From: Parcubacteria group bacterium GW2011_GWC1_36_108
Lineage (GTDB): Bacteria > Patescibacteriota > Minisyncoccia > Moranbacterales > GWC2-37-73
NCBI GenBank assembly: GCA_000991245.1
Contig: LBRD01000002.1
Span: forward strand, 25,906-89,905
Length of the DNA: 64,000 bases
Reading direction: 5' to 3'
This document shows positions 16,132-17,223 of this stretch, one piece after another. Every line of letters begins with the position of its first letter. The stretch's first letter is position 1. Below the pieces are notes generated by a model that was given only the letters and a program-made list of their open reading frames with translations, was not told the DNA's origin and did no database searches. Made by a program: the position numbers and the translations under genes.

Positions 16132-17223
16132 TCAGTAGTAAATATCTTCCTCGGTGGCTTTTTGGGAGCCATTCTCGTTATGTTCTTCTGCATTATCTTT
16201 CTTTGCGGAAGTTTTTTTACTGTTTGAATCATAATCTTTCAACAGCTCAGGGTATTCTATCGCCATTTGGGTGAATTTGTCCATTTGATAGACTTCATTG
16301 ATTTCGACTTGGCGGATGATGTCAGCAAATTGATTTTTTATTTCTCGCATTATGTCGCGAAGCTGTTCACGATTTTCAACTTCAATGTCCAAAAGTAATT
16401 CCCAGTTTCCCATACCTTTGACATAGTTGATGATGTTGGGATGAAGGCAACAAAATTTGTACAGATCGTCAATGCGTTTTTCATCGAATTGCACAATCTT
16501 GAAACAGTTGCGATAAAGCAGTAGTCCGGCCTTTTGATAGTCAATCGTGAAAGTTATTTTAGTGATCACTCCATTTTTTTCAAGCTTGTTGTAATGTTTA
16601 TGCACAAGTCCAACAGAGCAACCAAGAATTTTGGCAATCTTGGTAAATTCCATGCGTCCGTCTATTTGAAGTAGCGAAAGAATTTTGCGGTCATTTTCGG
16701 TCAGCTTTATTTTTTCGGTTGTTCCGCCAGAAACAGCGAATTTTTGAAATTCATTTTCTTTGCCAAGCAAATAGGTGCGGGGAAATTTCATAAAACCCAA
16801 ACCAATAAAAATGTCGCTCATTGTTATATATTGCCCAAATTTGGAAAAAATGTCTTGCAAAATTTGATTGTGATGAAAAAGGTCCTTGGTGATGATACCA
16901 ATCAGCACGTCGGCGTAGCCATCGGTGCGTTGGATGATTGGAATGTTCATATTGGAGTTGAAGTCAGCATAGATTTCAGCTTCTTTTTCTTTGCTGAGCC
17001 CTGCAAATTTGAGCCAATAACCCCAAAAGAAAGAATAGTCGGCTTTGTCATAGTCGATAAAAGCCCAAAAGTGCTTGATGATGCCTTTTTCTTGAAGTTG
17101 CTCAACGTGGTATTTTACGACTTGGGGAGTTGAGGAAATTACCCGCGCAATCTCTGAAAAACTGGCTCTGCCATCCTTGTCCAGTTCAAAGAGGATTTTT
17201 TTGTCGATTTCTGATAGGTTCAT
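16132..17223 (-). CDS. Transcriptional regulator with two AsnC/Lrp-type HTH domains and C-terminal KATEEDIYY tail
   Basis: Tandem ILFELDKDGRASFSEIA and ILSLLQIDGRMEFTKIA HTH modules. The last residues are QKATEEDIYY. Confidence 0.65.
   Translation of the reverse strand: MNLSEIDKKILFELDKDGRASFSEIARVISSTPQVVKYHVEQLQEKGIIKHFWAFIDYDKADYSFFWGYWLKFAGLSKEKEAEIYADFNSNMNIPIIQRTDGYADVLIGIITKDLFHHNQILQDIFSKFGQYITMSDIFIGLGFMKFPRTYLLGKENEFQKFAVSGGTTEKIKLTENDRKILSLLQIDGRMEFTKIAKILGCSVGLVHKHYNKLEKNGVITKITFTIDYQKAGLLLYRNCFKIVQFDEKRIDDLYKFCCLHPNIINYVKGMGNWELLLDIEVENREQLRDIMREIKNQFADIIRQVEINEVYQMDKFTQMAIEYPELLKDYDSNSKKTSAKKDNAEEHNENGSQKATEEDIYY

Follow-up and report, generated by a model that had tools for sequence, protein, structure and literature searches.

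A conserved C-terminal peptide on winged-helix regulators of Candidatus Moranbacteria as a candidate docking motif

Terminal peptides of described systems and the tail of three regulators

The C-terminal acidic tip SSB-Ct (...DDDIPF-COOH) is the interaction hub of the bacterial single-stranded DNA-binding protein, while the ssrA peptide (AANDENYALAA) and the C-terminal signals of CtrA and MuA are degradation tags read by ClpXP and its adaptors. Many bacterial regulators bear C-terminal degrons, and SSB and Hfq, with their acidic tips, provide a precedent for a tip that tunes DNA affinity by folding back. In eukaryotes, the C-terminal WRPW and VWRPY motifs of the Hairy/Hes and Runx proteins recruit the co-repressor Groucho/TLE; to our knowledge, neither a bacterial equivalent of this system nor a mechanism based on tethered peptide activation domains has been established for bacterial regulators. 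The HbYX motif, a Hydrophobic-Tyr-X sequence that closes the polypeptide chain, has been described in proteasome activators but is not known from regulators. Moreover, almost nothing is known about gene regulation in the ultra-small and uncultured CPR/Patescibacteria. Finally, the chemoreceptor pentapeptide NWETF (xWxxF), placed after a flexible linker, recruits CheR and phosphorylated CheB (PMC7390727, PMC8609364), and TrmBL2 (PDB 5bpd) is a chromatin protein and global repressor of the Thermococcales (PMC3031468).

The peptide considered here, QKATEEDIYY followed by a stop codon, closed three open reading frames (16132-17223, 19208-20035 and 40010-40807) of a Candidatus Moranbacteria (CPR) genome within the window, that is, the whole 64,000-nt stretch of DNA that was analysed. 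A shared KATEEDIYY ending had been reported in the preliminary description, which was confirmed, the common stretch being one residue longer. Window search and codon comparison placed the tail and its stop at 16132..16164 in the AsnC copy (minus strand), at 19208..19240 in the TrmB-A copy (minus strand) and at 40775..40807 in the TrmB-B copy (plus strand), and a six-frame search of the window for EEDIYY, DIYY-stop or IYY-stop gave no further match. A full-text literature search for EEDIYY, TEEDIYY, EEDLYY and EDIYY returned nothing relevant, no similar peptide turned up in PDB chains, and none of the NCBIfam, Pfam and PADLOC models covered the tail.

Three acidic residues, an Ile and, at the very C-terminus, an aromatic residue, all placed behind a disordered linker, are common to the tail and to SSB-Ct, and the tail may likewise be a short peptide that is bound by partner proteins and is dispensable for the folding of the body. 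However, it was carried by winged-helix (wHTH) regulators, whereas the SSB tip belongs to an OB-fold protein bound by genome-maintenance proteins; it ended in YY instead of PF, and its YW sister dialect (described below) was not strictly terminal. The chemoreceptor pentapeptide, a docking site in trans to which the tail can be likened, is also conserved, contains aromatic residues, follows a flexible linker at the C-terminus and is present on some paralogues only. Nevertheless, the tail has EDIYY or DDYW instead of xWxxF, its carriers are regulators instead of MCPs, and no enzyme of the CheR/CheB type was implicated. The closest functional analogy to the mechanism proposed below would be the WRPW-Groucho system, in which unrelated families of transcription factors bring the same short aromatic C-terminal peptide to one co-regulator, although that system is eukaryotic, uses another sequence and has a known partner. 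As for HbYX, the ending I-Y-Y-COOH fitted it formally, but the YW dialect did not. A PIP-box or beta-clamp motif was discarded by inspection, as spacing and hydrophobicity did not fit Qxx[ILM]xx[FY][FY] or QL[SD]LF. Regarding the carrier bodies, their architectures were those of TrmBL2 and of the archaeal FFRP/Lrp regulators, and we know of no characterised protein of either kind with such a tail.

The carriers and the selection on their tail

The first carrier (16132..17223, minus strand) was a fused double Lrp/AsnC-type regulator of 363 aa, made of two wHTH plus RAM-like modules, a linker and the tail. The AsnC-type wHTH appeared twice (residues 3-50 and 175-222), with Pfam E-values of 5e-26 for HTH_24 and 3.6e-18 for HTH_AsnC-type, while the match to AsnC_trans_reg (E 0.004) did not reach the cut-off. 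The AF2 model (mean pLDDT 90.7) presented the duplicated wHTH and alpha/beta modules, the latter being two beta-alpha-beta-beta-alpha-beta modules as in the RAM alpha/beta sandwich, and each half superposed in Foldseek on archaeal FFRP/Lrp regulators (TM-target ~0.8, ~26% identity). The best full-length Foldseek match was the fused NirDL 4ch7 (E 2.5e-14, 13% identity), which came first because it is likewise a fused double module. Membership in the siroheme decarboxylases NirDL/AhbAB was rejected, with 23-31 bits for the NCBIfam models AhbA and AhbB against cut-offs of 125-140.

The second carrier, TrmB-A (275 aa; 19208..20035, minus strand), was a TrmB-like regulator with a wHTH, a coiled coil and a PLD-like domain, i.e. 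the TrmBL2 architecture, and the third, TrmB-B (265 aa; 40010..40807, plus strand), was identified as its paralogue by Pfam, subfamily analysis and orthologue search. Both matched TrmB PF01978 (E 1e-14 for TrmB-A and 1.7e-16 for TrmB-B) and were ~34% identical as subfamily representatives. The three bodies had initially been described as unrelated, which was true of the AsnC and TrmB proteins, without BLAST similarity outside the tail, but not of the paralogous TrmB-A and TrmB-B. TrmB-A was 100% identical to a protein of Candidatus Moranbacteria GW2011_GWC2_37_73, and in its AF2 model (mean pLDDT 89.8) the TrmB-type wHTH was followed by a long dimerisation helix (residues 75-99), with a PDB profile match to TrmB 3qph over residues 7-153. 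In Foldseek, it matched TrmBL2 5bpd/5box (E 6e-14 over ~270 columns), and its C-terminal half matched the PLD-like domains of Nuc, NucT and Zucchini; this half was PLD-like and did not include the extra sugar-binding domain of TrmB proper. As the NCBIfam TrmBL2 equivalog gave 19 bits versus 530, TrmB-A should be considered a distant relative of TrmBL2 and not an orthologue. A kinship with CARF/Csa3 or CasR, suggested by PADLOC, was rejected, the matches being confined to the wHTH domain. The AsnC and TrmB proteins each carry winged-helix domains.

In pairwise comparisons of the window copies, the last 10 codons presented 5-8 synonymous and 0 non-synonymous differences, with just 22-25 out of 30 nt identical, and the 20 codons before the tail presented 17-20 non-synonymous differences. 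Among 24 distinct tailed genes, the full sets of four Ala, four Thr and three stop codons occurred, while the residues A, T, E, E, D and Y of the tail were invariant, so that its amino acids were kept between species as the codons drifted. An identical 10-mer at three C-termini among ~60 genes, with differences that are synonymous only, rules out chance, and the 5-8 synonymous versus 0 non-synonymous codon changes indicate that selection acts on the peptide and that the tail is no DNA repeat. These sequence comparisons support the tail as a functional peptide motif common to several families and under strong purifying selection. This agrees with the functional motif across families that had been suggested from the window alone, given the purifying selection and the occurrence of the tail in seven regulator subfamilies in many Moranbacteria MAGs.

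By contrast, the tail might be a by-product of events at the DNA level, namely a mobile repeat or the conversion of one gene's 3′ end by another, and the peptide might have no function. Recombination within tail-coding DNA does happen (locus L002, see below), and there was a single copy in non-coding DNA, an orphan 22-codon remnant (L007/L071) corresponding to the 3′ end, now decayed, of a TrmB-A-type gene. However, the copies were only partly identical in nucleotides and differed by synonymous changes exclusively, their flanking DNA was unrelated, and the repeat finder reported no repeat family at the three tail sites. Such an origin is barely conceivable, and the ratio of synonymous to non-synonymous changes effectively refutes it. 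The preliminary description had named two outcomes that would speak against a functional motif, a mobile repeat also occurring in non-coding DNA and a tail unique to the three proteins; instead, the tail-coding DNA was not a dispersed repeat, and further carriers were found in other Moranbacteria MAGs.

The disordered linker and a possible docking function

The tail of the three window regulators was borne on a variable, disordered linker of 17-25 residues. In the AsnC protein, 120 homologues and AF2 delimited a variable low-complexity linker at residues 329-353 (16165..16239, minus strand); the core conserved in these homologues stopped at ...FTQMAIEYPELL, beyond which both length and sequence varied. 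The linker of TrmB-A (residues 245-265; 19241..19303, minus strand) lay behind the nearly invariant W244 and was variable among orthologues, and that of TrmB-B (residues 239-255; 40724..40774, plus strand) lay behind the conserved ...IW helix end. Overall, orthologue alignments placed the ends of the folded cores at conserved positions, beyond which the tail was optional: it was absent from 101 of 120 AsnC, 39 of 120 TrmB-A and 111 of 120 TrmB-B orthologues, most of the last ending a few residues past the ...IW helix. Two monomer AF2 runs on alignments of ~120 sequences, judged on pLDDT and secondary structure, gave bodies with pLDDT ~90 and extensions of low confidence (~40 in AsnC, 58-70 in TrmB-A), with a one-turn helix over EDIYY. 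In the AsnC protein, the helix ran on to residue 344 (pLDDT 73 for residues 331-340), and residues 345-363 were below 50. Extensions of this appearance are the usual picture, in such models, of a binding motif borne at the end of a disordered linker. The models gave no sign of an intramolecular fold-back, the tails being modelled with low confidence and their docking on the body not being suggested. The monomer models were compatible with docking in trans inside a homo-oligomer or with a weak intramolecular contact.

We infer that the tail binds in trans, and we give about an even chance to its being a short linear motif, portable between proteins, that docks the regulators to one trans-acting partner shared by all of them. 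Partner docking, a modification site and a degron had already been proposed from the sequence alone, and all three are still plausible candidates. The motif would consist of an acidic run and a Tyr-aromatic pair (clade form Q-K-A-T-E-E-D-[IL]-Y-Y-COOH), presented by a disordered leash that would have been added to folded winged-helix bodies. Through it, DNA-bound regulators that are otherwise unrelated (several TrmBL2-like paralogues and the fused Lrp/AsnC double regulator) would be connected to a single protein, and it may work as a tethered acidic/aromatic peptide for activation or recruitment. The partner is probably linked to transcription, which we hold most likely since all carriers are DNA-binding regulators, most of them with a back-to-back promoter of stereotyped layout; our guess would be a subunit of RNA polymerase or a co-regulator common to the carriers. 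The sharing of an identical, strongly selected and putatively docking peptide by several regulators implies a common layer of control above the individual ones. With RNA polymerase or a co-regulator as the hub, activation would be modular in a manner unusual for bacteria, and such a recruitment motif would parallel, in bacteria, the activation domains of eukaryotes or the WRPW-Groucho system; with a protease as the hub, the tail would act as a regulon-wide turnover switch. In either case, the peptide would be a ready-made bait with which the hub could be identified without culture, in a proteome of <1,000 proteins.

Three acidic residues and aromatics capable of stacking, on a flexible linker, could also suit an auto-inhibitory mimic of nucleic acids, whose tip would fold onto the basic winged helix of its own or a neighbouring subunit and thereby tune DNA affinity and specificity. 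All carriers bind DNA and share the winged-helix domain, and many orthologues do without the tail, as expected for a modulatory element. However, 8-10 invariant residues, including Q, K, A and T, in seven subfamilies exceed what a diffuse electrostatic mimicry needs, the winged helices of the carriers are 21-49% identical or of unrelated families, and the net charge of the tail is merely about -3. Moreover, the deep alignments left the AsnC tail at a pLDDT that does not suggest a fixed docked position. Such an auto-inhibition appears distinctly improbable.

Distribution, dialects and exchange of the tail

A census of 185,579 species genomes, the JGI metagenomes and IMG/VR was carried out with the pattern T-E-E-[DE]-h-Y-Y-stop, which is blind to more divergent tails. 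The real carriers it contained were the double-AsnC protein and six TrmB-like subfamilies only (bodies 21-49% identical), all in Moranbacteria-type MAGs, and the remaining matches were short chance ORFs. A phage origin of the tail was rejected, as the IMG/VR scan gave no real carrier in viral contigs. In addition, a second dialect was found at the same position in sister lineages, with an acidic run, YW and 0-4 further residues, the core common to both dialects being [DE][DE]-D-x-Y-[YW]. The YW form appeared in 51 of 120 TrmB-A and 4 of 120 AsnC orthologues, and 0-4 variable residues followed the YW pair in 54 of 56 proteins of this dialect, so the aromatic residue need not bear a free carboxylate. 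If the docking reading is correct, the YY and YW forms would constitute a natural co-evolution experiment with which to locate the binding pocket.

The main rival of docking is a degradation tag read by an AAA+ protease (ClpXP, Lon or FtsH) or an adaptor, by which the regulators would be turned over jointly. Like the known tags, the tail is a terminal peptide of ~10 residues, transferable between proteins and found on regulators; it is strictly conserved, is placed at the very end of a disordered leash, and resembles bipartite tags such as ssrA. In class-1 tails (E-E-D-I-Y-Y-COOH), the stop codon stayed right behind YY in 45 out of 45 proteins though three stop codons were used, and a putative ClpP gene, assigned by sequence alone, was present in the window (58374-58973). 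However, the last residues of ClpX-type tags are small and non-polar (LAA/AA) and bear a free carboxylate, while the tail is an acidic peptide closed by Tyr-Tyr, and trailing residues are tolerated in the YW dialect. Furthermore, a loose acidic-aromatic C-terminal pattern matched, among 943 ORFs, exclusively the tailed regulators, all of them wHTH proteins. On this balance, a degron is unlikely. Regarding a possible mimicry of the ssrA tag, neither the window nor any of 34 related loci contained a tmRNA gene.

On the tree of the bodies, the tail class was clustered (21 changes versus 54 when shuffled), several switches being present nonetheless. The three genomes seen with at least two tailed regulators were all of class 1, and the contigs around class-2 proteins (L136-L141) had one tailed regulator apiece; consequently, few cases stand behind the notion of one dialect per genome. 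At locus L002, a TrmB-A body was joined to AsnC-type tail codons and an AsnC-type downstream spacer, which places a crossover inside the tail-coding DNA, and, as read from these sequences, the tail is swapped between genes by recombination in this one genome. More broadly, and only tentatively, Moranbacteria-group CPR may use a motif in lineage dialects (EEDIYY or EDDYW) that links unrelated regulators to a hub, either RNA polymerase or a global co-regulator, and that is moved by recombination.

Putative promoter element and neighbouring genes

A stereotyped divergent promoter element, which is a new finding, was predicted from sequence beside all three tailed genes. This 45-nt element, with the consensus TTGATATTTT-N13-TATACT-ACGTTGTTAAGATGAA, had 3 matches in the window with 0 expected. 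The first, a promoter/leader element at 17287..17331 (plus strand), was back-to-back with the AsnC gene's own promoter and was sigma-70-like (10/12 match); in 7 out of 7 loci it was 87 nt from the AsnC starts. The second, beside TrmB-A (20140..20184, plus strand), faced a gene of 107 aa (20294-20617), and the third, beside TrmB-B (39849..39893, minus strand), faced a receiver-like gene. A shared operator specific to the tailed genes was rejected, as the element accompanied 16 of 23 tailed regulators and also 6 of 11 tail-less paralogues, and for this same reason it gives no specific link between the tail and transcription initiation.

The receiver-like gene (39152..39772, minus strand) encoded a protein of 206 aa (MRILVIDD...DLLMP...NHHHHPA) with a Cys-rich C-terminus, identified by family alignment. 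In the alignment of this family (A4), seven sequences were 22-34% identical, with relatives matching PF00072 weakly and below the Pfam cut-offs. In 7 of 32 cases, which came from genomes with either dialect, members adjoined tailed regulators divergently, and this could suggest that the tail tethers a signalling or modifying enzyme (a kinase, a phosphatase, an acetylase or this receiver-like neighbour), its tyrosines possibly being modified; the anatomy is that of the chemoreceptor NWETF, an aromatic C-terminal peptide after a flexible linker and common to paralogues. We regard this as very unlikely, given that the receiver assignment is weak and that no modifying enzyme was linked to the tail. 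Moreover, most loci did not have the receiver-like gene, which was also seen beside paralogues devoid of the tail; it may thus be no more than a target regulated from the divergent promoter.

Tailed regulators most often adjoined a Metallophos_2 phosphoesterase gene (11 of 32 cases), which in the window lay 12 nt downstream of the AsnC tail (15589..16119, minus strand; Pfam E 2e-25) and which also flanked the L002 recombination junction. As for the ORF6N-domain genes that had been reported next to each TrmB-like gene, their adjacency was verified in the window, with gaps of 24 nt (19183/19208) and 79 nt (40807/40887). However, the conserved TrmB plus ORF6N module proposed from it did not extend to other genomes: it appeared in 3 of 32 distinct tailed-regulator loci, all of this genome, and the syntenic slots held PaaX_M-like, metallophosphoesterase or receiver-like genes instead. 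From this distribution, the ORF6N genes look like accessory insertions and not partners of the tail. One of them (18623..19183, plus strand) was convergent with TrmB-A, and the other (40887..41417, plus strand) was downstream of TrmB-B and co-directional with it. Their products were 49% identical, exceeded the gathering score of ORF6N PF10543 (E 4e-32 and 5e-31, respectively), and matched the PADLOC candidate defence family PDC-S05 over their full length (E 1e-56 to 1e-63).

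Shared C-terminal peptide of three regulators

Three open reading frames (ORFs) of the window were verified at the positions given in the preliminary description and share the ending QKATEEDIYY-stop; the regulator families proposed there, as well as the ORF6N domains at 18623-19183 and 40887-41417, were borne out by Pfam. These were the double-AsnC protein, a fused Lrp/AsnC-type regulator with two HTH_24/HTH_AsnC modules (16132-17223, reverse strand), and two members of the TrmB family, TrmB-A (19208-20035, reverse strand), 100% identical to a Candidatus Moranbacteria bacterium GW2011_GWC2_37_73 protein, which places the window in a CPR/Patescibacteria genome, and its paralogue TrmB-B (40010-40807, forward strand). 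Neither EEDIYY nor DIYY-stop or IYY-stop appeared in any other reading frame of the 64 kb window. The tail-coding DNA of the three copies was identical at just 22-25 of 30 nt, with 5-8 codon differences per pair, all synonymous, while 17-20 positions of the 20 preceding codons differed non-synonymously. As the DNA downstream of the three tails was also unrelated and a repeat finder returned no repeat family at these sites, the possibility that the tail is a DNA repeat was ruled out. Moreover, 24 distinct tail-bearing genes from many metagenome-assembled genomes (MAGs) used all four Ala and all four Thr codons, both codons each of Glu, Asp and Tyr, and every one of the three stop codons, and A-T-E-E-D-[I/L]-Y-Y was preserved despite this variety. 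Thus, selection acts on the tail peptide.

AF2 models, built on alignments of ~120 sequences and read from pLDDT and secondary structure, gave confident bodies for TrmB-A and the double-AsnC protein (mean pLDDT of 89.8 and 90.7, respectively). The pLDDT was below 50 for residues 345-363 of the double-AsnC protein and 58-70 for the last 25 residues of TrmB-A, the sole structure in each modelled extension being a one-turn helix over EDIYY. A disordered leash that ends in a binding motif usually looks like this, and nothing in the pLDDT or secondary structure points to intramolecular docking. An autoinhibitory tail mimicking DNA is disfavoured by this predicted behaviour, as well as by the extreme invariance of the tail sequence. 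The architecture of TrmB-A was that of TrmBL2, with a wHTH, a coiled coil and a PLD-like domain (Foldseek 5bpd, E 6e-14). The double-AsnC protein is a fused pseudo-dimer, each half of which matched FFRP/Lrp regulators (~26% identity); its best full-length structural match was the fused NirDL enzyme (13% identity), but its scores with the AhbA/AhbB models were far under the cut-offs.

Carriers, dialects and exchange of the tail

A total of 185,579 species-representative genomes were scanned in any frame for A-T-E-E-[DE]-h-Y-Y-stop, and the JGI metagenomes and IMG/VR for T-E-E-[DE]-h-Y-Y-stop. Every translated match with the context Q-x-[AV]-T-E-E-D was a double-AsnC or a TrmB-like protein, which extended the tail from the three proteins first described to 26 distinct carriers. 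They formed one AsnC and six TrmB-like subfamilies, and the bodies of these seven were 21-49% identical to one another or had no detectable similarity. The other matches were mostly chance ORFs of 8-70 codons, together with three further long ORFs lacking the Q-x-A context and an unrelated family ending in GATEEELYY (one protein of Hymenobacter and a related ORF from a metagenome), and no real copy of the tail was found in the viral contigs of IMG/VR. A much looser C-terminal pattern, requiring two acidic residues and then an aromatic pair with at most four residues after it, matched none of 943 ORFs of low-GC loci other than these regulators; this set, chosen via the tail, tests ~900 flanking genes rather than an unbiased sample.

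The tail proved to be optional. In 120 double-AsnC homologues the conserved core ended in ...FTQMAIEYPELL, and only the 15 closest relatives continued into a variable K/N/E/D/S-rich linker and the tail. Among TrmB-B orthologues, nine had the tail and 111 had none. Tailed and tail-less TrmB paralogues occurred in the same genome at two related loci (L001 and L006), and at another (L008) TrmB-A was tailed and the AsnC orthologue was not. The TrmB-A orthologue group (at least 47% identity) comprised 30 EEDIYY-type tails (class 1), 39 tail-less proteins and 51 tails of a second dialect (class 2), in which YW and 0-4 further residues come after an acidic run, such as EKEDDYWSVKK, DDDLDYWAKQ or EDAYWE. 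The YW-type ending was also present in four AsnC orthologues and in two of 150 representatives at the 50%-identity level; the others had neither tail, and most of the 150 were ~245-250 aa long, ending shortly past the last helix. Aligned on the aromatic pair, both classes shared the core [DE][DE]-D-x-Y-[YW]. On a neighbour-joining tree of the bodies only, tail class was clustered (21 changes vs. 54 with shuffled labels), having switched several times. Three genomes or contigs carried at least two tailed regulators, each class 1 throughout (the window, L014/L039, and an 18,498-bp contig common to homologue entries P0001 and P0340), and no class-2 genome with two was found; the dialect may follow the genome. 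The strictly terminal position of the class-1 tail would suit a degron, the main rival reading, whereas the acidity of the tail, its final YY and the YW dialect, which is not strictly terminal, argue against one of the ClpX type.

Furthermore, the TrmB-A gene of L002 (MAG UBA12142) was of TrmB-A type as far as ...AATCAAAAA and then continued with AsnC-type tail codons (GCC ACC GAG GAA GAT ... TGA vs. GCA ACT GAA GAA GAC ... TAA in the window TrmB-A) and the AsnC-type spacer AATAAAATATT, running into a phosphoesterase gene (L002 1890-1945; window counterparts at 16115-16170 and 19205-19245). This sequence points to recombination inside the tail-coding segment that led to a deletion or fusion, the product expected from two co-oriented segments arranged as in the window, and implies that tails are exchangeable between genes of different families. 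In L007 (345-410, reverse strand) and L071, a lost TrmB-A-type gene had left behind an orphan remnant of 22 codons, SKKDSPTKQAPQKATEEDLYY plus a stop codon, in otherwise non-coding DNA, upstream of a promoter-like site and a putatively RhuM/Bro-N-like ORF starting MIEKQNSLAIFENFKIRRHYDEKNENWYFS.

Selection at the level of the peptide, 8-10 residues kept invariant on unrelated bodies, the disordered leash, optionality and portability together argue for a short linear motif, which would bind a single shared protein in trans. Docking peptides carried C-terminally on a leash are known from other systems (SSB-Ct, NWETF and the FtsZ C-terminal peptide). We know of no described case in which bacterial transcription regulators from different families share one such peptide and the peptide has lineage-specific dialects. 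The motif was unmentioned in a full-text literature search, and none of the curated models and solved structures covers the tail.

Promoter architecture and neighbouring genes

A new 45-nt shared element, predicted to combine a sigma-70-like promoter with a leader (TTGAC(G)TTTT-N13-TATACT-ACGTTGTTAAGATGAA), had three copies in the window vs. 0 expected, one per tailed gene (17287-17331 and 20140-20184, forward; 39849-39893, reverse). Each lay in the divergent intergenic region of the tailed gene, directed away from it and back-to-back with the regulator's own promoter. All 34 copies of the 22-nt core (two mismatches allowed) in ~1.08 Mb of related loci were accounted for beside TrmB- or AsnC-type genes, 22 being directly assigned divergently upstream and 12 falling in duplicates of loci already counted. 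The distance to the start codon was 87 nt for AsnC in every case and 92-236 nt for TrmB. The element appeared beside 16 of 23 tailed regulators and also 6 of 11 tail-less paralogues, so what it marks is this class of local regulator rather than the tail. The 16 nt past the -10 box were conserved, with an ATG-AAx-TAG mini-ORF inside in several copies, and the downstream genes varied (receiver-like, small secreted and unknown proteins).

The conserved TrmB/ORF6N module of the preliminary description did not hold up, as only 3 of 32 distinct tailed-regulator cases had an adjoining ORF6N gene, and these three all belonged to this genome. The orientation of the two window pairs (ORF6N at 18623-19183 and 40887-41417, both forward) also differed, being convergent in the first and co-directional in the second. 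The two ORF6N proteins were 49% identical to each other and had full-length matches to PDC-S05, a candidate phage-defence family of PADLOC (E 1e-56 to 1e-63). Their genes look like accessory insertions, since a PaaX_M-like gene occupies this chromosomal slot in related genomes. More frequent neighbours were a Metallophos_2 phosphoesterase (11/32) and a divergent family of receiver-like proteins marked by the motif NHHxHPA (7/32), followed by a PaaX_M-like regulator (4/32). The stand-alone receiver-like proteins (ILxxDDT...D[LV]xxP...NHHxHPA...W), mostly under Pfam Response_reg cut-offs, were encoded divergently beside these regulators in the window (39152-39772, reverse strand; with a Cys-rich C-terminus, CxxCxGxxxCCxCxGxG) and in L003 (6953-7537), L005 (5597-6025), L006 (4036-4566), L008 (1643-2575) and L140 (9112-9663).

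As all carriers found were DNA-bound regulators, most of them at this stereotyped promoter architecture, a transcription-linked partner is favoured by inference: RNA polymerase or a shared co-regulator, which the tail would engage in the manner of acidic/aromatic activation peptides or of WRPW-Groucho recruitment. Possibly, the tail instead acts as NWETF does and tethers a signalling or modifying protein, maybe the receiver-like neighbour (PMC7390727, PMC8609364).

Other elements in the window

The 16-nt palindrome TGTTCCACGTGGAACA had nine perfect copies at 2421-3612 (vs. 0.01 expected), within an ORF for a Wzy_C (O-antigen-ligase-like) membrane protein (2250-3986, reverse strand). They occurred in all three frames, read as NVPRGT, MFHVEH or CSTWN, and recall the in-frame palindromic elements of Rickettsia. 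A group I intron (11573-11827, forward; Rfam RF00028, 73.5 bits) followed tRNA-Val(tac) at a distance of 40 nt and preceded an HTH_23/CENP-B_N-like ORF (11935-12627). Moreover, a ~90-nt leader without a match in Rfam, consisting of a hairpin GGCAAGGAAGTT..AACTTCCTTGCC, CTCTCTCATTGAG, a second variable hairpin and ATAGGAG, was repeated at 17973-18060, 20640-20727, 20933-21020, 21248-21335 and 21544-21574, each copy immediately preceding a small ORF (55-70 aa); these form a tandem small-gene array between TrmB-A and the endonuclease IV gene. Finally, a VirB4/TraG-type P-loop ATPase (32805-34628, forward; PF19044, E 1.5e-28), surrounded by small predicted membrane and secreted proteins (~28600-35400), suggests a putative type IV secretion- or conjugation-like cluster.
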